DNA of 32,000 nt from Candidatus Scalindua sp. (lineage in GTDB: Bacteria > Planctomycetota > Brocadiia > Brocadiales > Scalinduaceae): contig JAIQZU010000039.1 of NCBI GenBank assembly GCA_021776915.1, positions 89,720 through 121,719 of the forward strand. Reading direction: 5' to 3'. Positions 13,579 through 23,449 of this stretch are shown here, piece after piece. The number at the start of each line of letters is the position of its first letter. Position 1 is the first letter of the stretch. Under the pieces are notes generated by a model that saw only the letters and a program-made list of their open reading frames with translations, made no database searches and was not told where the DNA came from. The position numbers and the translations under genes are program-made.

Positions 13579-14493
13579 TTAGCTCCTGGCAACAAACTCT
13601 TCCTGACTGACCGAACGAAAAAATCTGCTCCTTTCTTTCCTGCCTTTCGGCGGCAGACCTTGAGGAACCGGACACTGTCTTAAGGCTTCGTCACATTGAC
13701 CGCACACCGGAAAAGGCATAGAGTTTTTCAAGGCCCTCCTTTTCATTTCGGCTATAACAGAAACATCATCATTTGCCAGATTCCCGATTCGTGTAGCGCC
13801 GGTCAGGTCATGGCAGCATGCCAGCGCCTCCCCTTCCCATGTTACAAAGGTATGGAACTGAAAAAGGCTGCATATTCCGGATTCAAGTCCAATGGATCGA
13901 GGTGCATATATTTCCTGCAATCTTAGATTTCCACCCCGTCCGTGACATACTGTCATACTGGAGCCTACACCTCGCTCCTTCCAGAAACTGACATATTCTT
14001 CCTGTTCTCCACTATTGATATCAGTAATTATACCAGTAACCCTCAAGCCCACATTTCCCCTGGCAATATCTATTAATTCAAGAGTCCTCTTTAATGCGTC
14101 CTCATAAGACACATTTGGGCATAACTTCTCAAAGACACTTTTTCGCAGGCTTGGAAAAGAAAGTGTAATGGAATTGGGACTGGACTCGACAAGCCTTTGA
14201 GAAATATTTCTATTTAATGATGCAGGGTTTATCACGATCCCCACATCACCATCTTTCCTGCGGATGTCGTAAATCCATTCAAAAACCTTCTGGTGTGATA
14301 GAGGATCACCCATGCCAGAGAATGTAATAAGGCTTCCTTCACTGACAAGTTTATCCGTGACTGCCTTGAATACGTTTTCAGACATAAAACCCTCAGGCCT
14401 TGTTATAGCTTCGCGTGGACACATGAGGCAACCGGTACTGCACCGGTTGGTGAGCTCCATGTCTATGGATACAAACGCCCAGTCAGACGGCAT
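13579..14493 (-). CDS. radical SAM protein with C-terminal Cys-rich SPASM/twitch-like extension
   Basis: C18-STG-C22-LM-C25 (TNRCSTGCLMCPRE), FSGMGDPL. C-terminal ACCHD...GNL and CGQCDEALRQC. Start chosen at ATG 14493 behind GGAAGGAG; the longer track ORF (to 14673) overlaps the upstream gene by 190 bp. Confidence 0.8.
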   Translation of the reverse strand: MPSDWAFVSIDMELTNRCSTGCLMCPREAITRPEGFMSENVFKAVTDKLVSEGSLITFSGMGDPLSHQKVFEWIYDIRRKDGDVGIVINPASLNRNISQRLVESSPNSITLSFPSLRKSVFEKLCPNVSYEDALKRTLELIDIARGNVGLRVTGIITDINSGEQEEYVSFWKERGVGSSMTVCHGRGGNLRLQEIYAPRSIGLESGICSLFQFHTFVTWEGEALACCHDLTGATRIGNLANDDVSVIAEMKRRALKNSMPFPVCGQCDEALRQCPVPQGLPPKGRKERSRFFRSVSQEEFVARS

Positions 14494-15586
14494 CCTGCTT
14501 CTCCTTCCTGACTGCCTCCAGCCATGCAGTGCCAAAGCGTTTATCCGGTTCCAGATAATGGCCTTCACTCCACTCGTTCCATGACGCAATGAAGGAGAGT
14601 TGAGGTTTGTTGAATTTTCTTGTGTAGCTGATTGCACGGCCAAGAAAATCTGAAAAGAGTGCGGGGTCTTCATTTACAACAACAGGCCACCAGGGATAAC
14701 GCTCCTGTTTGTGGTATCCGTTTACGGCAGCCCGCGGTGTGGCGTCCCATCCTGGTGACACCGATGGAAAGTAAGCAAGCCCGGACTTATCAGCAAAACC
14801 TTCCCACTCTCTGCTTCGCTTTTTGACCAGTTTACCATAGTCCTGCTGGTATTCACCCTTCCAGTCAGGAAGCCAGACGTAGTGGCTTATGCTGTCAAAT
14901 CCAGACCTCTTGAACTCAGCAATCATAGAAGGCGCCGGATTGATGGCCATAAGATGAAGGCCGGGATATCCTCTCTTAATAAGATAGTCCTTAGCTTTGT
15001 AGATTGCCAGTGACGCCAGACTCGGCCCCAACTGCCGAAGGAAGAAGGTGCTGTCAAAGATAGAGAACAGGGGCATGCCATCTATGCGCAGGTAATTTGA
15101 TCTTGAAAAGTACCTTTCCTCAAGAAATCTTATCAACTCCACAAAATCATCAGGGTCGGTGTATACAAGCCTGCCTGGACCAATATCAGGGGCGGGTCGG
15201 TGTTTTACCGGAAGGACTCCACGGGGCATACGGTTTGCCCACATGAGAGAGAAAGGAAAATCATCGCCGCCATCTTTGCCTAGAAATCCATTATCAAGGG
15301 CCGCATCGAAAACACGTTTTCCCCGTGACCAGAAAAACCCGTACACAAAGAAATCCACACCGTATTCTCTGGCAAGCCCTACCTGTTTCTGTGCGGTAGA
15401 AGGAACTGAATCATCGTACGTCCCACCAACAGGGAGGCGTGGTTGATTATGACCTGGAAAACGGGACGGAGCATTCAAAACAAGGTCCCACTCACTCCAA
15501 CCCGGCTGAAAGTTACTGTCCCGTTCAACACAGGCATGCCAGCCCGGATAAACATATGCGCCAATCTTTGCATTCTCATTTGACAT
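14483..15586 (-). CDS. glycoside hydrolase family 99-like / WbsX-family glycan-processing protein
   Basis: Pattern GWSEW..V..AP.RFPGHNQPRLP...YDD, AREYGVDFFVY..FWS.GKR, DFPFSLMWAN, typical of the WbsX (GH99-like) family as recalled. The stop overlaps the radical SAM start by 11 bp. Confidence 0.75.
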   Translation of the reverse strand: MSNENAKIGAYVYPGWHACVERDSNFQPGWSEWDLVLNAPSRFPGHNQPRLPVGGTYDDSVPSTAQKQVGLAREYGVDFFVYGFFWSRGKRVFDAALDNGFLGKDGGDDFPFSLMWANRMPRGVLPVKHRPAPDIGPGRLVYTDPDDFVELIRFLEERYFSRSNYLRIDGMPLFSIFDSTFFLRQLGPSLASLAIYKAKDYLIKRGYPGLHLMAINPAPSMIAEFKRSGFDSISHYVWLPDWKGEYQQDYGKLVKKRSREWEGFADKSGLAYFPSVSPGWDATPRAAVNGYHKQERYPWWPVVVNEDPALFSDFLGRAISYTRKFNKPQLSFIASWNEWSEGHYLEPDKRFGTAWLEAVRKEKQDAV

Positions 15587-15715
15587 TTAATAATCAATTT
15601 TCTTTTTTATAAAAATTTAGTAAAACATCATGTGTTGGATGGTGAGATATTCATGGTAAAAGAAAGGAACAAGAACAAATTTGTCATTTTAAAAGATTTG
15701 AACTCCTGCCTCTAT

Positions 15716-17260
15716 TTACAACACATTAAAACCGCGAACCTTCAGTGTTTCCTCTAACCTTTCAGACTCATTCTTTGTGAGTGCTTCTATTTCCTCGGTA
15801 TTAGGAACTATAAGCTCATCTATCAACTCCGATTTTGAGAAAATGCCTAACACTGTACTTTCATTAAGTTTGGTAACACTGCCATAAAAAGCACTAAAGA
15901 ATATAACAGTTGTGTTTTCCAACTCCACCGACGAATTAAATAAAACCACATTTACATCTTTTGCAGGTTCAGATTCAGAAGAAAATTCTAATGAAAATTT
16001 AGGATTGTACTCTTGACCAACAATGTACAGCAAGTAGAAATGTCCTATTTTCTCAAAAACTTTATAAGGATAAATAAGTTCATCAATCAAATTTAGCTCG
16101 AATAATTTACTATACGTCGCATTAAATGCATTAAATTCCATTTCAAAATTCTCGGGTACTGATGTTGAACCCTGTGATAAAGAAACTTTAAGGGGAGTGC
16201 TACCATCCTTTGGTTCAACTTCGATATAGGTCTTACCTTCACTATCCGCTTCTTTCATGAAGCTAAGAAAACCATAAAGTTCTTTGATAGGAACCTTCAA
16301 TTTTTTATCTAACAAATTTTCAACATTAAAATTTAATTCATTACTCTCTAGCCGATAAACTATTTCAAACAATGACGTCTTTATTCTCATTGCTGCAAAT
16401 TTTTTAGGCAAATGCTTTGGCACCGTATATATTAAACCGTCAAACACGTATTTCTTTGAAAATTCTGACTGACTCAACTTCACTTTGGCTTTAGTAAGTT
16501 CATTTTCTATAGGCTTTATAGTAGTTGTATGATTCTTGTCCACATGAAGAGGAATCGTATCTGGAATGCCTAAAGGTGCTTGATACGTAGTGGTATCTAC
16601 CGTAAACTCTTCGTCATAGCCCAAGAAACAGTTTGCCATTGATCTTAGTGATTTTTCGTCATTCAATGTAATATTAAAATGTAAAAGACCGCTTTCAAGC
16701 TCAATACGTTTAAGCCATTTAACTTTCCTCTCAATGTAGGTTAAATAATCGGGTTTTGCTGACCTTGAGAATAACCCACTTAAACAATATCCACTAAGCT
16801 CAGTAAGGCTACAAGCCTCATCAAATTTTATAAGTTTTTTGCTTTTGTTTAGCTTTAAATCTTTGTTAGCAACTTCCTTATTTCTGAGAGTTTGTAATAC
16901 ATTAAGCGCTAAGTCTTCGTCTATATGCAGCAAGTAAGCTCTTTCAGGGTTAATTCCAGAATCGTAAAGCGCTAGAAAAATAAAGGTTGGTCCACCAAAT
17001 TGAATCAGATTTAGTAGATTACTATACGTTAGAGAACATTCAGGCTTTCCGCTTCTCGTAGCTTTTACTTGAACCCTGTAAACTTGGCGAACCTGGGATG
17101 TGTAATCAATTGTTGGTGAGTTTGGATGCTCAACCTCAAAGTCCCAACCAGCTTTATCATCATCAGAAGCATTTACAACTAGCCCTGCATCTTTTGCTAG
17201 CAATTTAAAGAAGCTTTCTCCCATAGATCCTAGATCTTCTGACCTTTTTGTATTAATCAT
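15716..17260 (-). CDS. DUF4365-like PD-(D/E)xK nuclease-fold N-terminal domain fused to an uncharacterised domain of about 380 aa
   Basis: N-terminus GESFFKLLAKDAGL...DKAGWD40FEVE...YRVQVK66AT matches the recalled DUF4365 / restriction-endonuclease-like D...E.K pattern. The remainder has no motif I recognise. Confidence 0.65.
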   Translation of the reverse strand: MINTKRSEDLGSMGESFFKLLAKDAGLVVNASDDDKAGWDFEVEHPNSPTIDYTSQVRQVYRVQVKATRSGKPECSLTYSNLLNLIQFGGPTFIFLALYDSGINPERAYLLHIDEDLALNVLQTLRNKEVANKDLKLNKSKKLIKFDEACSLTELSGYCLSGLFSRSAKPDYLTYIERKVKWLKRIELESGLLHFNITLNDEKSLRSMANCFLGYDEEFTVDTTTYQAPLGIPDTIPLHVDKNHTTTIKPIENELTKAKVKLSQSEFSKKYVFDGLIYTVPKHLPKKFAAMRIKTSLFEIVYRLESNELNFNVENLLDKKLKVPIKELYGFLSFMKEADSEGKTYIEVEPKDGSTPLKVSLSQGSTSVPENFEMEFNAFNATYSKLFELNLIDELIYPYKVFEKIGHFYLLYIVGQEYNPKFSLEFSSESEPAKDVNVVLFNSSVELENTTVIFFSAFYGSVTKLNESTVLGIFSKSELIDELIVPNTEEIEALTKNESERLEETLKVRGFNVL

Positions 17261-17325
17261 CTTCTATAACCTGAAAAATGTTGATGGCCACTGAAATAGA
17301 TTATACCATCTATATCTCGTTGTAT

Positions 17326-17583
17326 CTAATCATCCGCTGATTCAAAAAAGGTTTTCCCTTGCCTGATAAAAGCCTGAAATAATGAATATGTAGTTTTGAT
17401 TTCACGTTTATTTTTAATGCCATTTGAGCGTATAAAGTCATATCCAACTTCCTCAATTTTGGAGAGATAGTGAAGAGATGAAAATATTTCGTCATTAAGG
17501 GGACGATTTGTGTGTAAAGGAATTTTCGGGGACTGACTAAGATTCAAATCCATAAAGCCTGTCATTTTTCGATAATTTGCCAT
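17326..17583 (-). CDS. small hypothetical ORF (85 aa), possibly a truncated gene fragment
   Basis: Lies between the RM gene and the DUF4365-like gene on the same strand. The C-terminal YSLFQAFIRQGKTFFESA resembles the N-terminal helix of YaaC/Abi-like proteins (weak recollection). No SD seen. Confidence 0.3.
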   Translation of the reverse strand: MANYRKMTGFMDLNLSQSPKIPLHTNRPLNDEIFSSLHYLSKIEEVGYDFIRSNGIKNKREIKTTYSLFQAFIRQGKTFFESADD

Positions 17584-17688
17584 AAGTATGAATTATATTT
17601 TTTAGAGTATAACGCTTTGCATAACTTACCCGAAATTGAAATGCAAATTAAACTTGGTTACATTTCAACAGACAGAAATTTGGGTAGT

Positions 17689-20600
17689 TTATGCTAAATC
17701 CATAAATTGAATTTTATCTATTTCTTTCATAAGCCTGTCTGTTTCTGTCAACGCTACAATTATTTTCTGGTAATGCAAAATATCCTCAAAGGTTAATTCT
17801 CTACCTTTCCTGTCCTTTAGCCATTTCTGTGCGGGTTGATAACCACCGATGTAAAATTCCCACGCAATAACAGGTACTTTATCAAAATATTGCCGGTCAT
17901 TTATCCAGACACGGCCTGAGCCTTTTTCTTTATCAATTATTTCAAAATCATTTTTACCGATTTTACGAGTTACTATATTGTTACCATCATTTGGATAAGA
18001 AGTATTCCCTTGTTCAACTATAGGACTTTCCAATAAATGTATTTGCCGCAATTCTCCTCCAGGTTTTACCAATTGCCAGAATATATCCTTATCTTTGGGA
18101 TAAGGAACTCGTGGAAAATCTATTTTCAGAAACTCCTTGTATTTCTCACGGTAAGTGGGTGAGTATAAAACGGCATAGATATAATCCAGTATATCAATTG
18201 GCGCAAAGGTATTTACGGTACCGTCCTTTTCGTTGGTAAAGGTTAAACCGAGATTTGCTGCAATTTGTTTTACAATTACTTGGTTCAAGTTTGGTGTGCG
18301 TTCTTGTTCATTAAATAGTATTGATTGTCCATTGGTTTCTGGATAGAGGTAGAGGGGGAAAAGATATGATCTTTCTTTTGTTTCTAGCGATACAGTGCAA
18401 TCATTAATAAGTGCACTTGAACAAAGTATATGTCTGAATTTTCTATTTACTTGACGATTAGTAATCAACCCCAAATTCTCCTGCATCATATGACCCATAA
18501 CTTCCCTTCGTGAACGCTCAATAAGATCATCATGATAAAAAATCCATTGAATATCGAATGGCCTGTAGAGAATTTTTGTAACAGATTTTTCCCAATCTTT
18601 ACAGTCTATTATTCTCTCTCTTTTTTCTTTTAACTTCCAGTTGGATTTATCCTTTAAATTAAAGCTTTTTCGAATGATTTCATCTGATGCTGCTTTATTA
18701 CGAAACTCCATAATACGTGCTTTCAGGGAATCCTTATTAGAGTCAATTACAAAATTATCTCGTGAGGTAACTATCCCAACATTATTAACAGGAAAAATGT
18801 CTGTTACCTTCAGATACTTCTCATAATTTTTTGAGAGTTTTTCATCTCTTGGAATAAAAAAGTAAAATTCAGTTTTAGGTGTCAACTTCTTCCACTTTGT
18901 GGTCTTAATATCATTATTCAAAAGCCAGCTATATTTTTCTTGCCTTTTTCCATAAATATCAAAATGGAAAATATCGGCAGGCTTTGTTGAAGCGTGAGTT
19001 TTTACAAAAATATTAATTGAAACGCCTTGCATAATGTCAAAAATATTTTGGTCTTGTGAACCATCAGAACAAACTTCTTTCTTCTTAATGTTACCATGTA
19101 AATCTATGGTATAAATTTTATCGTAGGTTCTTAACAAGTTCCAACGCATTCCTCTAAACGTAGGATTATCTAAAAAACCGTGTGGATTAATAAACGCCAA
19201 AATACCTTCCCCGTTTTTTTCAATAAAATGTTGCCCATATCTAAGAAATTTTACATAGTCGTCATTAATCCATTTTGGATTTTTTTCTCTTAATTTTTCT
19301 TTCCCCCCAGGTTCTTTTTTGTAATCCTCCATTAGATTCATAATCCAATTCCCTTTATTAGCACTTTCTCCACTATAAGGAGGATTACCCAAAATCACCA
19401 TAACAGGCGTGTCCCTCTTTACTAAATTGGCTTCTGTTGCTTCCCTTGATAACCAACTCGCAAACAATGTCCCTGTATCGGGATGGGCTTCTTCAAGGCT
19501 GTTTGTCAGGAATACTCTTAATCTTTGTTGTTTGTTATTATCTCCAGGTTTATATCCTGTTTCACGCAAGAGCATTTCCAGTTTTAAATGGCATATCGTA
19601 TAAGATGCCATTAATATTTCAAAACCGTTAATGCGTGGTATAAGTTCATTTTCAACATAGTTTGACCAGATGCCTTTCTGATTTTCAAATTTTTTATATA
19701 TCTGCTTAACGACTTCAGTCAGAAAGGTACCCGTACCGGTTGCAGGATCAAGAATTTGTACTTTATGTACCTGCTTCTTTATTTTTTTGCCTACACCCTG
19801 TACCTCTACTTTCATTTCAATCTTGCTTGTATCGGCTAATCCCTGCTGTAAATCAAATTCGGTTTTCAAAATATCATCCACTGCTCTTACAATAAAATTA
19901 ACAACCGGTTCAGGTGTATAATACACACCTCGTGATTTCCGTAGTTTCGCGTCATATTCAGCGAGGAAGGTTTCGTAGAAATGAATGAAAGGGTCGTGTT
20001 GTTGGGTAGCTGTTCCGAAATCCGCCAACAGTGATTTTACGTCTGTCGCCCTGAAAATATCAGCAAGGTCATTTACAATCCAGACGACACGGTTGTCCAA
20101 ATCCGGGCCTGCAACATAAGTAAAGAGTTGTCTTAGAAATGGATTTGATTTTGGGACCAGAAACAGAGCTTCTTCCCTGGAAAAATCCTCTAATGTTGTA
20201 TCATGCAATCTTGCTGCAAATAAGCCATAGGCAATGGTCTGTGCGTAAATATCTGCAAATTGCTTTTCAGACAAGTCATGAATTAATATTTGACGGAAAG
20301 CGTCAAGTTGTTCTTTCAAAGTATTGTCTTCGTCTTCTGTCTCTACCGCTTTATGGATAACCTCTTCCATCATTCTGGCTTTATGAGCCATCATTTTAGC
20401 AAGCTTCTCAGCAGACTTTACGGTTTGTCCTTTAAAAGAACAAAAATCATTTATATGCAGAATAAATGATTCAAAGTTTTCTGACAATATGTTGAACTTG
20501 TTGTTTTCTGTGTCAATAATTTTTATGGTTTTAACTTTTTCGCCATATTTAATAAATCTGAATTCCATGTAGTCTGTTAAAATTAGATTATCAAGGCTCT

Positions 20601-20874
20601 TTTTATACCGTTTTAATTGGTCGGTTTTTTCAATCTTATCTAAATCAACTCCAATATCCTTTGCCTCAATGTAACCGATAGGCGCTTCTTTCCTTTGAAT
20701 TATATAATCAGGAGCGCCGCATTCCTGCCTTTTGGGTTCATTGGTTACATTTATCCCTTTTATGAGGTTTTGTAAAAGATTTTGTAAATCCCCACGGTAA
20801 CTATGCTCCGTTGAAATGCCTGTTCTAAATCTTTGTTTTATATTCTTACAATATTGTTCTATATCATTTTTCAT
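17689..20874 (-). CDS. type IIG (single-chain) restriction endonuclease / N6-adenine DNA methyltransferase
   Basis: N-terminal PD55-(x13)-E70AK72 nuclease motif (GAPDYII...GYIEAKD). GVYYTPEPVV. SAM motif I ILDPATGTGTF (aa 374-384). Motif IV NPPY (aa 497-500, nt 19375-19386), giving gamma-class order. Long C-terminal target-recognition region with FPLYLYPE and IDFPRVPYP. Confidence 0.85.
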   Translation of the reverse strand: MKNDIEQYCKNIKQRFRTGISTEHSYRGDLQNLLQNLIKGINVTNEPKRQECGAPDYIIQRKEAPIGYIEAKDIGVDLDKIEKTDQLKRYKKSLDNLILTDYMEFRFIKYGEKVKTIKIIDTENNKFNILSENFESFILHINDFCSFKGQTVKSAEKLAKMMAHKARMMEEVIHKAVETEDEDNTLKEQLDAFRQILIHDLSEKQFADIYAQTIAYGLFAARLHDTTLEDFSREEALFLVPKSNPFLRQLFTYVAGPDLDNRVVWIVNDLADIFRATDVKSLLADFGTATQQHDPFIHFYETFLAEYDAKLRKSRGVYYTPEPVVNFIVRAVDDILKTEFDLQQGLADTSKIEMKVEVQGVGKKIKKQVHKVQILDPATGTGTFLTEVVKQIYKKFENQKGIWSNYVENELIPRINGFEILMASYTICHLKLEMLLRETGYKPGDNNKQQRLRVFLTNSLEEAHPDTGTLFASWLSREATEANLVKRDTPVMVILGNPPYSGESANKGNWIMNLMEDYKKEPGGKEKLREKNPKWINDDYVKFLRYGQHFIEKNGEGILAFINPHGFLDNPTFRGMRWNLLRTYDKIYTIDLHGNIKKKEVCSDGSQDQNIFDIMQGVSINIFVKTHASTKPADIFHFDIYGKRQEKYSWLLNNDIKTTKWKKLTPKTEFYFFIPRDEKLSKNYEKYLKVTDIFPVNNVGIVTSRDNFVIDSNKDSLKARIMEFRNKAASDEIIRKSFNLKDKSNWKLKEKRERIIDCKDWEKSVTKILYRPFDIQWIFYHDDLIERSRREVMGHMMQENLGLITNRQVNRKFRHILCSSALINDCTVSLETKERSYLFPLYLYPETNGQSILFNEQERTPNLNQVIVKQIAANLGLTFTNEKDGTVNTFAPIDILDYIYAVLYSPTYREKYKEFLKIDFPRVPYPKDKDIFWQLVKPGGELRQIHLLESPIVEQGNTSYPNDGNNIVTRKIGKNDFEIIDKEKGSGRVWINDRQYFDKVPVIAWEFYIGGYQPAQKWLKDRKGRELTFEDILHYQKIIVALTETDRLMKEIDKIQFMDLA

Positions 20875-20950
20875 TATATTTCATTTTTACAAAATATTTT
20901 TTATTTCTTCTAAGTAAATTACGCCAAAATCGGGGACGTGTTTACACATC

Positions 20951-21715
20951 TCACTGCCTTTTTTTGTTAAATATACGTTTTATCCGGTACCTAATTGCGC
21001 CAATGTTGAACCAAAATTCAGCCCATCTCTCTTTAAACGGCCTATTCAAATCACGATATTCGTGCCGAATACACAATAAAAGCTTAAGATACGGATCCTC
21101 TACAGGCTCATCAATTGTCTCACAAGCATTTTCATTAACTCTTTTTAATGCAATGTGCTCATTTTTAACTTTATCAGGGGGCAATAACCTCGTCTTCTCC
21201 AAGTTTTCAGCAATCGCAGGGCTGAAATAGGATAAATTTTCAGTAACATGTTTTATAAGCCGTATAAATCTCTTGGCGAAATCTTCATTTTCCAGATGAA
21301 AAACAGGAGATTGATAATTTATGAATTCATCAAGCCTCCTAGTCTGTTTGTCTCTTTCATGTGCATGGTAAGCTTCACGCACCTTGTTGCAAAACTCTCT
21401 TTTGCCTTCCTCGGATTTTATATGCTCTGGTATGTAGAAATTAAAACCGTAAGTTTGCTCTATCCAATGCGCATTCGAGAATTCGTTTACCGCCCTTTCT
21501 AGATCTTTGTCTTCGCTTTCAAAAGTAGATTCTTGTTCATTCTTATAATGATAAAGCAGTAGATCCGAAGCATCATGGTAGACTTTGTCATATACTCGCG
21601 CTCGCTCATTTCTCCTTGCAATTTTCGACTGTCTGATTGAAAACAGAAAACTTAACGCTGCAACAACAAGGCTACCTAAGGATATGTAAATTGCTATCTG
21701 TGATTTTTCTGTCAT
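20951..21715 (-). CDS. hypothetical membrane-anchored helical protein
   Basis: Single N-terminal TM helix (IAIYISLGSLVVAALSFLFSI), then a charged alpha-helical-looking region. Lies 76 bp upstream of the RM gene on the same strand. Confidence 0.5.
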   Translation of the reverse strand: MTEKSQIAIYISLGSLVVAALSFLFSIRQSKIARRNERARVYDKVYHDASDLLLYHYKNEQESTFESEDKDLERAVNEFSNAHWIEQTYGFNFYIPEHIKSEEGKREFCNKVREAYHAHERDKQTRRLDEFINYQSPVFHLENEDFAKRFIRLIKHVTENLSYFSPAIAENLEKTRLLPPDKVKNEHIALKRVNENACETIDEPVEDPYLKLLLCIRHEYRDLNRPFKERWAEFWFNIGAIRYRIKRIFNKKRQ

Positions 21716-21870
21716 ATCGTGCCTAGTAGATTACAAGTTATTATAAAGTTCTGAATAACATCACTATAGTAACGTTATTCTATAGAAATATTGTTATGTT
21801 AGTATTATAAAGACAGCGATTAAGTATTTGAATTATAGAGTGCTATTTCACGTCATACTCAATGCAATAG

Positions 21871-22167
21871 TTAGGTTTGATCTTTGTCTAATAAACGTTT
21901 TCCATGTATAACGGCTAAAATATAAATTTCCTTACCTTTTATTTCATAAATTAACCGATATTGAAAAACAAATAACTCCCGAATGGCTGCGTCACCAATT
22001 TCTGGAACAACACGGCCGGATTTGGGGAAATGAATTAAGGATTGAGGAGTTTCATAAATTTTGTTGACCGTTGATTCAGCATAAAATGCAGAATCTCTTG
22101 CTATGTATTCCCCAATTGCGTCAATATCTTCCAAAGCTTCTGGAGACCAAATTATTTTGTAATCCAT
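21871..22167 (-). CDS. parE: type II toxin, RelE/ParE family
   Basis: IIWSPEALEDIDAIGEYIARDS...YRLIYEIKGKEIYILAVIHGKR is the typical ParE/RelE pattern. 98 aa. Confidence 0.85.
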   Translation of the reverse strand: MDYKIIWSPEALEDIDAIGEYIARDSAFYAESTVNKIYETPQSLIHFPKSGRVVPEIGDAAIRELFVFQYRLIYEIKGKEIYILAVIHGKRLLDKDQT

Positions 22168-22340
22168 TTTGCTAGTCGAGCTTTGGCTTCTTCATTAGAA
22201 ATACCATTACCATTTTTTATGGATTCCTGACCTTTGCGGATTTTTTCAAGAACGTAAAGATGGTATTGGATGTCTTCCAATGTAGCCTTTTCCGGCAAGT
22301 GATGAATCATCTCTGCAATGTCATCTTTTAAAGTACTCAT
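22152..22340 (-). CDS. cognate antitoxin (small, 62 aa)
   Basis: Immediately upstream of the toxin with a 16-bp overlap. Its size and position are typical of a type II antitoxin. Confidence 0.7.
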   Translation of the reverse strand: MSTLKDDIAEMIHHLPEKATLEDIQYHLYVLEKIRKGQESIKNGNGISNEEAKARLAKWITK

Positions 22341-22812
22341 AGCTGAAATATAGAAAACTTTGATTTTAAGTTTAAGTAAAGACTAACTTAGGTTATGTGG
22401 CTATATACATTATTATTTTTTACGGCTATCAATTAAATCTGTATTGTAAATATATAGTTAACAAATCCATACGTCAATAATAATACATTAGCATCACTGC
22501 CCTAAGACTATCAAGGTTTTAGAGGTTTATTGTGTTACAAAAGATAAGGGTAATACTGATATTGACCTTAGCCTTTACAAACGTATCCTTGTTTTTCTGT
22601 CGAGCAGGCATAATATGGTTCCTAAATTTAGGTTTATTTTGTTTTTCCTGTTTCTCTACTCTTTCGATTGTAGAGTGTCACATTATTCTATCCAAATCTT
22701 TCTGAATCTTATAAATAACTTCCTTTACGCCTAATGTAAGAGAATGTAATCCATAAACACCGAATTAACAATCATCAATTTTAAATCTTCAATAGTCAAT
22801 CTAAAATCTCCC

Positions 22813-23382: not shown

Positions 23383-23449
23383 GAAATCGCTCAATTTAGA
23401 TGTAAGTTTACATTCTCATTTCCCTTTCCTCAACAACCAATTATAACGG

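Follow-up and report, generated by a model that had tools for sequence, protein, structure and literature searches.

The gene at 15716-17260 of the window is probably a single-gene defence or toxin module. Its product is best read as a self-contained, auto-inhibited DREN effector that would probably act in abortive-infection defence, by analogy with the DREN proteins already described. The window is the whole stretch of DNA that we analyzed, 32,000 nucleotides of contig JAIQZU010000039.1 from Candidatus Scalindua sp. The 514-aa open reading frame starts with ATG, is on the minus strand, and is a real gene, with about 40 homologues among the 5.8 billion proteins searched, nearly all of them full-length (500-530 aa) and 33-55% identical to it. 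The features that we refer to below are:

15716-17260, minus strand: complete gene, 514 codons plus the stop codon at 15716-15718, encoding a DREN head joined to a conserved body (a family of proteins of ~515 aa).
16811-17260, minus strand: DREN/DUF4365 PD-(D/E)xK domain, residues 1-150, from Pfam matches in relatives, Foldseek, and the order of secondary-structure elements.
17216-17218, minus strand: codon of E15 (acidic, helix alpha1), conserved in 93% of 107 sequences.
17141-17158, minus strand: D35-K-A-G38-W39-D40, which corresponds to "DxGxD" in the DUF4365 signature but is spaced DxxGxD here (codons checked).
17063-17071, minus strand: Q64-V-K66, the "QxK" catalytic motif on beta3, with Q64 and K66 both invariant in 107 sequences.
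16685-16810, minus strand: helical hairpin linking head and body, residues 151-192, with AF2 helices at 157-168 and 172-190.
16301-16684, minus strand: beta-rich middle domain, residues 193-320, from AF2 models and the entropy profile.
15719-16300, minus strand: acidic C-terminal region, residues 321-514, with the highest column entropy; made up of helices, four long strands that run antiparallel, and a helix at the C terminus.
17300-17328, minus strand: promoter-like site, TAGATA, a 17-nt spacer, and a TG-extended TATAAT (10/12 matches in a consensus scan).

There is strong support for residues 1-150 being a DREN (DUF4365) PD-(D/E)xK domain. The resemblance to DUF4365 (Pfam PF14280) was weak for the window protein alone (residues 13-85, E=0.0021, 18.5 bits, below the 24.3-bit cut-off) and solid at the level of the family. 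The domain was matched by 11 of 38 close relatives (best E 2.4e-7; this count takes in the sub-threshold match of the window protein itself) and by 15 of 90 remote relatives (best E 2.8e-6). At the level of the family, 26 of the 127 relatives other than the window protein matched, and a PF14280 annotation was already precomputed for two homologues. The 12 best PDB matches in a Foldseek search with the full-length model were all DREN-APAZ chains of SPARDA systems (E 1e-5 to 1e-3, probability up to 1.0). The elements of the head run in the order alpha1, beta1-3, alpha2, beta4-5, alpha3, in agreement with the order given for the DREN fold (PMC12205087); in the AF2 model the helices are at 7-24 and 79-87 and the strands at 28-31, 40-44, 60-68, and 92-98 (pLDDT 88). 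The full-length AF2 model had a pLDDT of 88.4 and a pTM of only 0.68, so the arrangement of head and body relative to each other is uncertain.

The predicted set of metal-binding and catalytic residues in the head (E15, D35, D40, Q64, and K66) is complete, a reading strongly supported by conservation. In an alignment of 107 sequences with ~20% identity, the conserved residues of the head were E15, D35, G38, W39, D40, E44, Q64, and K66; D35, W39, D40, Q64, and K66 were invariant and G38 was 99% conserved. The DUF4365 signature residues, for which the motif and mutagenesis data have been published (PMC11297309, PMC12205087), are all present in the window protein (D35, G38, D40, Q64, and K66). 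The catalytic D41 of NbaDREN aligns with D40, and its Q60 and K62 correspond to Q64 and K66; the change D41A/Q60A/K62A abolishes the nuclease activity of SPARDA (SPARDA literature). Likewise, D42, D46, Q66, and K68 of the toxin EAT16 match the signature residues of the window family, and in EAT16 the signature (DxGxD...QxK) is needed for toxicity in E. coli.

These results bear on an initial annotation of the gene, made from the sequence alone. The strings that it quoted from the head are all present (G14-E-S-F-F18, D40-F-E-V-E44, Q64-V-K66-A-T, and G89-GPTFIFLALYD100), and two of the three residues that it proposed to mutate, D40 and K66, proved invariant among the 107 sequences. The third, E42, is E, D, V, A, or T among family members and is not supported as a catalytic residue. 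The head had been described as DUF4365- or Mrr-like. The first half of that description held, given the Foldseek matches and the invariant signature. The second was not supported: we found no match to the Pfam family Mrr_cat, none of the significant fold matches was to a structure of the Mrr family, and the topology of DUF4365 is like that of Hjc, TnsA, and I-Ssp6803I and different from that of Mrr (SPARDA literature).

The body, residues 151-514, is a candidate new fold, as judged from its predicted structure. A model of residues 150-514 alone was confident (pLDDT 88.6) and had no match among PDB or viral structures, which is why we consider the fold a candidate for novelty. The body had no match in Pfam, NCBIfam, PADLOC, PHROGs, PDB sequences (searched with the single sequence and with profiles), or PDB folds, as the initial annotation had anticipated in finding no assignable motif in the last ~400 residues. 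The body is therefore not detectably APAZ. Foldseek with a model of the C-terminal part, a check that had been suggested with that annotation, gave nothing in the PDB at E<=1e-3 and left the body unassigned; two profiles run against PDB sequences gave noise only (MvfR at E ~1). The middle domain and the C-terminal region had no fold matches, and the body model contained no recognisable sensor fold. Resemblances to MHC-I-like, LolA, and TFIIIC tau60 folds were discarded as noise (probability <=0.25, TM-scores ~0.1). An APAZ-like body had looked promising in the full-length Foldseek search and was rejected when the match was lost with the separate model of residues 150-514.

Conservation within the family declines toward the C terminus, and the last 190 residues vary most. 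K179 is the sole invariant residue of the body, and G157 and Y175 are near-invariant; all three are in the hairpin of residues 151-192. The middle domain is moderately conserved (G214, F273, R292, and F298) and has a neutral mean charge. Region 321-514 has a net charge of -15 in the window protein and a mean of -8.7 in the family, negative in 96% of the 107 members. We regard this region as a candidate sensor or auto-inhibitory domain.

The head and body occur together in every full-length match listed. A profile of the body alone matched 278 representative clusters (at 50% identity), and among the 150 matches listed, those that are full-length (~500-540 aa) have a body that begins near residue 147-150 and is preceded by the same head; the others are shorter fragments. 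A profile search starting from the alignment of remote relatives recovered the close family again and nothing new. The hosts include Pseudomonas, Klebsiella, Vibrio, Legionella, Alteromonas, rhizobia, and one uncultured Desulfobacter. A scan of genome contigs gave one locus, and a scan of viral contigs gave two matches, both distant or partial.

We think a single-chain restriction endonuclease unlikely, be it type IV-like, as the initial annotation had offered as one of two readings, or specific for a structure or sequence. In such an enzyme the body would read DNA and the head would cut the invader, and the cell would survive. The layout of an N-terminal nuclease followed by a C-terminal reader is that of PvuRts1I/AbaSI-type enzymes, type IIG restriction-modification (R-M) enzymes adjoin the gene in two loci, and DREN tetramers resemble I-Ssp6803I, a site-specific homing endonuclease. 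However, the confident model of the body shows no DNA-reader fold, whether SRA, winged-helix, HTH, or another, and no DNA-binding domain of Pfam or NCBIfam was found in the protein. The C-terminal domain is acidic in nearly all members and the middle domain is neutral on average, and the DREN activities known so far are non-specific. The fold and charge of the body do not support the type IV-like reading.

The gene behaves as a stand-alone unit, a conclusion supported by its neighbourhoods. We examined ~25 related loci and found no neighbour gene conserved among them, in keeping with the stand-alone gene that had been proposed, and an all-versus-all BLASTP comparison of the ORFs within 7 kb at 19 loci revealed no conserved partner gene. 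In the window, an 85-aa ORF at 17326-17583 is separated from the gene by 65 bp, the distance given previously (where the minus strand went unstated). Apart from contigs identical to the window, no locus contained this ORF. Those 65 bp, upstream of the gene, contain the promoter-like site; the site is a weak prediction, as the total number of such sites in the region was not above that in shuffled sequences.

The family is carried by mobile elements (plasmids, ICEs, and islets flanked by integrases or IS elements) as single-gene cargo. The mobile neighbours differ locus by locus and include integrases, resolvases or other recombinases, IS elements, and plasmid genes, with TraD/TraG and ArdA at an ICE. 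Scattered among the loci are defence-type genes (NERD, UvrD-PDDEXK, DUF6791-ThiF, and type IIG R-M enzymes) and a YoeB/Phd toxin-antitoxin pair; a reverse transcriptase and a TIR protein adjoin distant relatives, and several loci have purely housekeeping neighbours. In the window, the gene is in a low-GC islet of ~7 kb that also encodes a ParE toxin and a type IIG R-M enzyme. In looking for island boundaries, we found no tRNA gene. The only flanking repeat was direct and 15 nt long, with one mismatch between its copies (15567-15581 and 23407-23421), and was rejected as an island boundary because it is too short to be trusted.

This setting raises the possibility, improbable to about the same degree as a restriction enzyme, that the gene serves the elements that carry it, in a selfish or competitive role, rather than host immunity. 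It could then encode a toxin for addiction or exclusion, a nuclease directed against plasmids, or a TnsA-, Hjc-, or homing-type nuclease that works in recombination or transposition. In addition to the location of the gene on plasmids and an ICE and beside integrases, resolvases, and IS elements, several likenesses fit: the DREN fold is nearest to Hjc resolvase and TnsA, in BFVD an Hjc-type resolvase and small viral PD-(D/E)xK proteins matched, over the head only, and one DUF4365 protein is an injected eCIS toxin. In contrast, the associated recombinases vary in type from locus to locus, and the gene is therefore cargo rather than part of any single transposition machine. There is also no conserved antitoxin-like partner, as the distribution of the 85-aa ORF illustrates, and no terminal repeats or target duplications were found that would tie the gene to a defined element.

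We consider it very unlikely that the protein is an accessory of the adjacent type IIG (ISP-like) R-M enzyme, such as a back-up nuclease that acts when R-M is inhibited. A type IIG enzyme gene lies directly upstream on the shared strand both in the window, with the 85-aa ORF in between, and in a second locus (L010/L011), which has a gap of 20 bp. But these are the only 2 of ~25 loci with this adjacency, and so the co-occurrence with type IIG methylases that had been suggested as a check came down to two cases. Identity between the two type IIG enzymes is 21-23%, compared to 54% between their DREN proteins. Moreover, the closest relative of the window protein (P0002) has no type IIG neighbour, and in the window there is a promoter-like site ahead of the gene.

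It is barely credible that the protein is a divergent DREN-APAZ orphan whose short Argonaute is encoded elsewhere in the genome: full-length Foldseek alignments to DREN-APAZ chains extend over >500 columns and the overall sizes are similar (514 aa versus ~420-450 aa), but the TM-scores of ~0.2 (rmsd ~29 A) mean that one domain only superposes, the best SPARDA chain falls to rank 41 (E 0.037, probability 0.08) when the body is searched alone, no profile matched PDB sequences, SPARDA chains included, and no Piwi or Argonaute gene was found in the window or in any of the ~25 related loci examined.

The closest known counterparts share the head of the window protein and differ in what is attached to it. 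Among PDB structures, the best matches were the DREN-APAZ proteins of NbaSPARDA and XauSPARDA (PDB 9jt2, 9qcc, 9qbq, and 9vx6). They have an N-terminal head of ~146-150 aa with the same order of strands and helices and the same D...QxK residues, and then a linker and a larger module that is not catalytic. Unlike them, the window family has no detectable APAZ and no adjacent short Argonaute (MID-PIWI) at any locus; its body of ~365 aa has its own conserved residues (K179, Y175, G214, and R292), and there is no sequence similarity outside the head. Divona, a single-gene anti-phage cassette of the V. cholerae chromosomal integron with DUF4365 and crr6 (PF08847) domains, is similar in domain layout: one polypeptide with an N-terminal DUF4365 nuclease and an unrelated C-terminal domain, carried as mobile cargo. 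However, PF08847 had no match in the window protein (E<=1) or in any of the 127 members scanned. EAT16, a secreted or injected eCIS-associated toxin of Photorhabdus, also has DUF4365 at the N terminus and a second domain, but is encoded with a contractile injection system, and there are no eCIS genes near members of the window family.

More limited likenesses were found to small nucleases. The only PADLOC family matched was PDC-M02A (residues 8-72, E 7e-6), an unvalidated multi-gene candidate system; the likeness is confined to the head and leaves the body uncovered, and the profiles, at 169-193 positions, thus describe a small nuclease-only protein. The Hjc/Hje resolvases, TnsA, and I-Ssp6803I share the PD-(D/E)xK topology class of DREN at the level of the fold only; they are small, site- or structure-specific, and without a 365-aa body.

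Based on these comparisons, we put at somewhat under an even chance the reading that the gene encodes a self-contained effector nuclease whose DREN heads would be assembled into tetramers on cue, leading to abortive infection or growth arrest. The case for defence is circumstantial and draws on the location of the gene and on the roles of DREN in SPARDA, EAT16, and Divona, which protects V. cholerae against phage. The isolated DREN of SPARDA is monomeric and inactive, and the active form is a tetramer that cuts DNA and RNA indiscriminately. By analogy, the 365-residue body of the window protein would take the place of the APAZ-Argonaute module, and in the resting state it would hold or mask the DREN head. 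The variable, acidic C-terminal domain might be a decoy for a DNA-binding surface or a surface that binds the trigger. On sensing a cue derived from infection, more likely a protein than DNA, the body would drive oligomerisation, and the resulting DREN tetramers would degrade cellular and invader nucleic acids, with abortive infection or growth arrest as the outcome.

A more specific form of this effector reading is possible, and we hold it only tentatively: the body may be a previously unseen sensor-scaffold fold that activates DREN independently of Argonaute and a guide, making the protein a single-gene counterpart of SPARDA on plasmids and ICEs. In that case the acidic C-terminal domain would detect the cue, and self-assembly into an oligomer or filament would bring the DREN heads together as a tetramer.

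DREN is a recently characterised collateral nuclease that has already been explored for nucleic-acid diagnostics, and so far it has been understood solely as the output of an Argonaute filament. What is new here is a known DREN head joined to a different, structurally unassignable body, without a partner gene. Study of the family would reveal other ways in which a DREN head is silenced and switched on. The family could add a single-gene system to the catalogue of defences and may offer a compact, trigger-dependent nuclease. If the body does act as sensor and scaffold, then the family would be a compact single-gene counterpart of SPARDA that is widespread on plasmids and ICEs.

The DREN gene encodes a 514-residue protein with a head (residues 1-150) and a body (residues 151-514).

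15716-17260, minus strand: DREN gene, ATG start, 514 codons (from the ORF list)

Judged by sequence comparison, this ORF is a genuine gene because a search of 5.8 billion proteins found approximately 40 homologues, nearly all of them full-length (500-530 aa, 33-55% identity). Those with a named source, including Pseudomonas fulva, Halopseudomonas laoshanensis and an uncultured Desulfobacter, were all labelled 'hypothetical protein'. Remote members on plasmids of Alteromonas, Klebsiella variicola, Pectobacterium, Legionella, Vibrio, Rhizobium, Bradyrhizobium and Methylocystis were annotated as hypothetical or as 'DUF4365 domain-containing protein'.

The evidence strongly supports a head that is a DREN-type PD-(D/E)xK nuclease (DUF4365, Pfam PF14280) with its catalytic set intact and with predicted activity. 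The match of the window protein to DUF4365 (residues 13-85, E 0.0021, 18.5 bits) was below the cut-off of 24.3 bits, and PDC-M02A, a PADLOC candidate family, was matched in its N-terminal part at 7e-6. DUF4365 was matched by 11 of 38 close relatives (counting this sub-threshold match) and 15 of 90 remote ones (best E 2.4e-7), so support is much stronger for the family than for the window protein taken alone. An AlphaFold2 model made with a 38-sequence alignment had a mean pLDDT of 88.4, and its best 12 Foldseek matches in the PDB (9qcc, 9vx6, 9qbq, 9jt2, 9qbp, 9jsz; E 1e-5 to 1e-3, probability up to 1.0) were all DREN-APAZ chains of SPARDA, the short pAgo and DREN-APAZ immune system.

In the DREN domain of NbaSPARDA (residues 1-146), catalytic D41 is on beta2 and Q60 and K62 are on beta3 (PMC12205087), and the triple mutant D41A/Q60A/K62A has lost nuclease activity (SPARDA preprint). 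Toxicity of EAT16, a Photorhabdus eCIS toxin, requires the DUF4365 signature DxGxD...QxK (D42, D46, Q66, K68; PMC11297309). In the window protein, D35-x-x-G38-W39-D40 lies on beta2 and Q64-V-K66 on beta3. Across 107 aligned relatives sharing only approximately 20% identity with this protein, D35, W39, D40, Q64 and K66 never vary, and conservation of G14, E15, N30, G38 and E44 is 90% or more. Invariance of the catalytic residues at this level of identity shows strong purifying selection on the active site. The head belongs to the DREN/DUF4365 family by signature and fold, with the profile threshold reached by relatives only, and we regard its identity as a nuclease as very likely.

The initial annotation had read a DUF4365 nuclease head from the sequence, and the relatives' DUF4365 matches, the DREN-APAZ fold matches and the invariant D35, D40, Q64 and K66 all uphold that reading; every string it quoted (G14-ESFF, D40-FEVE44, Q64-VK66-AT, G89-GPTFIFLALYD100) is in the translation, and a check confirmed the positions of the codons. 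It had proposed D40, E42 and K66 as catalytic, which holds for the invariant D40 and K66 but not for E42, which is variable. Its label 'Mrr-like' was imprecise because the SPARDA literature (including PMC12205087) groups the DUF4365 topology with Hjc, TnsA and I-Ssp6803I.

The combination of this head with this body is strongly supported as a fixed architecture. When 1.84 billion representative proteins were searched with a body-only profile, 278 clusters matched at E<=1e-3. In every full-length protein (approximately 500-540 aa) among the 150 matches listed, the body started at about residue 147-150 and the DREN signature was kept; the other matches listed were shorter fragments. Thus, in this sample of sequences, the body appears never to occur behind a different head.

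The length of the Foldseek alignments to DREN-APAZ suggested that residues 150-514 might be an APAZ-like module; the evidence is against this. The superpositions had TM-scores of approximately 0.2 and an rmsd of approximately 29 A, indicating that only one domain superposes. A separate model of residues 150-514 (pLDDT 88.6, pTM 0.77) had no PDB match reaching E 1e-3. Its first SPARDA chain was at rank 41 (E 0.037, probability 0.08), and its top fold matches (TFIIIC tau60, MHC-I-like and LolA) had probabilities of at most 0.25. The body had no match in PDB sequences (profile search), Pfam, NCBIfam, PADLOC or PHROGs, and matches in a viral structure library were of head size only. These results agree with the initial annotation, which had found no assignable motif in the body and proposed the fold search of a C-terminal model.

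The protein becomes less conserved towards its C terminus. Conservation is highest in the head and in a helical hairpin (residues 157-190, with invariant K179 and near-invariant Y175), intermediate in residues 193-300 (where G214 and R292 are prominent) and lowest in residues 301-514. Even so, 96% of members are acidic over residues 321-514 (mean net charge -8.7; -15 in the window protein). No fold that could read DNA was found, and the acidity of the C-terminal domain also argues against a type IV-like or other DNA-reading restriction enzyme. This option, which the initial annotation had proposed as one of two, is weakened and we now consider it unlikely.

The DREN gene is at the end of a stretch of low GC content (approximately 0.34-0.35 from about 15.7 to 22.7 kb, versus 0.42-0.47 on both sides) with the following other genes.

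21871-22340, minus strand: ParE-family toxin (98 aa, PF05016 at 8e-19) and an upstream 62-aa ORF overlapping it by 16 nt
20951-21715, minus strand: 254-aa ORF immediately upstream of the R-M gene, with a stretch near the N terminus that looks hydrophobic by eye
17689-20874, minus strand: complete 1061-aa type IIG/ISP-like R-M enzyme (Type_ISP_C 3e-89; full-length PADLOC REase_MTase_IIG match)
17326-17583, minus strand: 85-aa ORF, located between the DREN and R-M genes

The data suggest that the stretch at about 15700-22700, with the DREN gene, the R-M enzyme and the toxin-antitoxin pair, is a horizontally acquired islet of approximately 7 kb between a WbsX-like gene and yjbQ. The window has neither an integrase gene nor a tRNA gene. 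On each side of the stretch lies one copy of a 15-nt imperfect direct repeat (15567-15581 and 23407-23421), which may be due to chance. The 62-aa ORF had no Pfam match and is probably the antitoxin; the 254-aa ORF had no match in Pfam, NCBIfam or PHROGs. The R-M enzyme combines a PD...EAK nuclease motif at its N terminus (by eye, GAPDYII...IGYIEAKD) with a gamma-type N6-adenine methyltransferase containing NPPY and with Type_ISP_C as specificity domain. The 85-aa ORF had no match in Pfam, NCBIfam, PADLOC or PHROGs. Outside the window it occurred in just two Logan contigs, both identical to the window, and in none of the other DREN loci. It contains a hairpin resembling a terminator (17489-17506), and may be a spurious ORF. 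The ORF coordinates confirmed the 65 bp noted initially between this ORF and the DREN gene, and that gap has a promoter-like site (TAGATA, 17 nt, TG-TATAAT). Beyond the stretch, a radical SAM/SPASM ORF (13579-14673, minus strand) and the WbsX-like glycosyltransferase ORF (14483-15586, minus strand) overlap by approximately 190 nt in the ORF list. With its Radical_SAM domain beginning at residue 72, the former probably starts further downstream than listed.

The approximately 25 related loci that we examined came from metagenomes, genomes and plasmids. In 19 of them, comparing all ORFs within 7 kb against each other revealed no conserved partner gene. Neighbors included tyrosine integrases, serine resolvases and recombinases, IS21, IS66 and Mu-type transposases, ICE transfer genes with ArdA, a Fic protein, a NERD protein and a DUF234 ATPase; in a few loci they looked purely housekeeping. 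In one locus (L025, 3080-8463), a 1134-aa Peptidase_M78, UvrD helicase and PDDEXK_1 fusion and a DUF6791-ThiF (E1-like) protein, possibly other defense modules, are upstream of another family member. A YoeB/Phd toxin-antitoxin pair flanks a remote member in L039. Two distant relatives (approximately 25% identity) are in defense-island-like settings, near a 603-aa reverse transcriptase on an IMG/VR contig (L032, 7019-8830) and a TIR protein with Ig-like domains (L030, 533-1528). Together, the loci strongly support the DREN gene as autonomous cargo of mobile elements. Such locations are compatible with a selfish function for the element, for example as a recombination nuclease or as a toxin in exclusion or addiction, but recombinase types vary by locus and there is no conserved antitoxin, and we judge this as improbable as DNA reading.

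The initial annotation had also proposed checking co-occurrence with type IIG enzymes. Only two loci of approximately 25 had one, the window and one other lineage (L010/L011), where it is immediately upstream with a gap of 20 bp. The two enzymes are divergent (21-23% identity, versus 54% for the corresponding DREN proteins), making it quite improbable that the DREN protein functions as an accessory to the type IIG enzyme. In L010 (4840-7980), the enzyme upstream of the DREN homologue is encoded by two genes (330-aa ISP_coupler and 712-aa Eco57I/Type_ISP_C), either a split or frameshifted version or a genuine two-subunit variant.

There was no Argonaute in any of the approximately 25 loci. Because neither APAZ nor pAgo, the features of SPARDA, was found when tested for, the window protein is not a SPARDA component; with APAZ undetected, an orphan DREN-APAZ working with a distant Argonaute is highly improbable. 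The crr6 domain (PF08847) of Divona was matched by none of 127 family members scanned, and no known or candidate PADLOC system covers the protein past its head. Other DREN fusions, to TIR, NTPase with WD40 repeats, and DUF2057, have been noted (SPARDA preprint), and we found no description of this head-body architecture in the papers identified as mentioning DUF4365.

Our preferred model, to which we give a little less than an even chance, is defense by triggered assembly. Divona, a DUF4365 fusion in a single cassette, protects V. cholerae, and this protection together with the toxicity of EAT16 indicates that DUF4365 fusions are able to act alone. Because the isolated DREN of SPARDA is monomeric and inactive, and is a non-specific DNase and RNase only as a tetramer assembled by Argonaute filaments (PMC12205087), the body would by analogy most likely provide both restraint and an assembly platform for the head. 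The variable acidic C-terminal domain would be the best candidate for a sensing surface or a DNA-mimicking auto-inhibitor. Activation would bring heads together, causing indiscriminate degradation of nucleic acids and abortive infection.

The protein is therefore a known effector domain on an uncharacterized body, possibly with a new fold, in a moderately large, unstudied family of single-gene systems. The familiar parts are the head and the general logic; the control of DREN without Argonaute and the unassignable body are directly testable.
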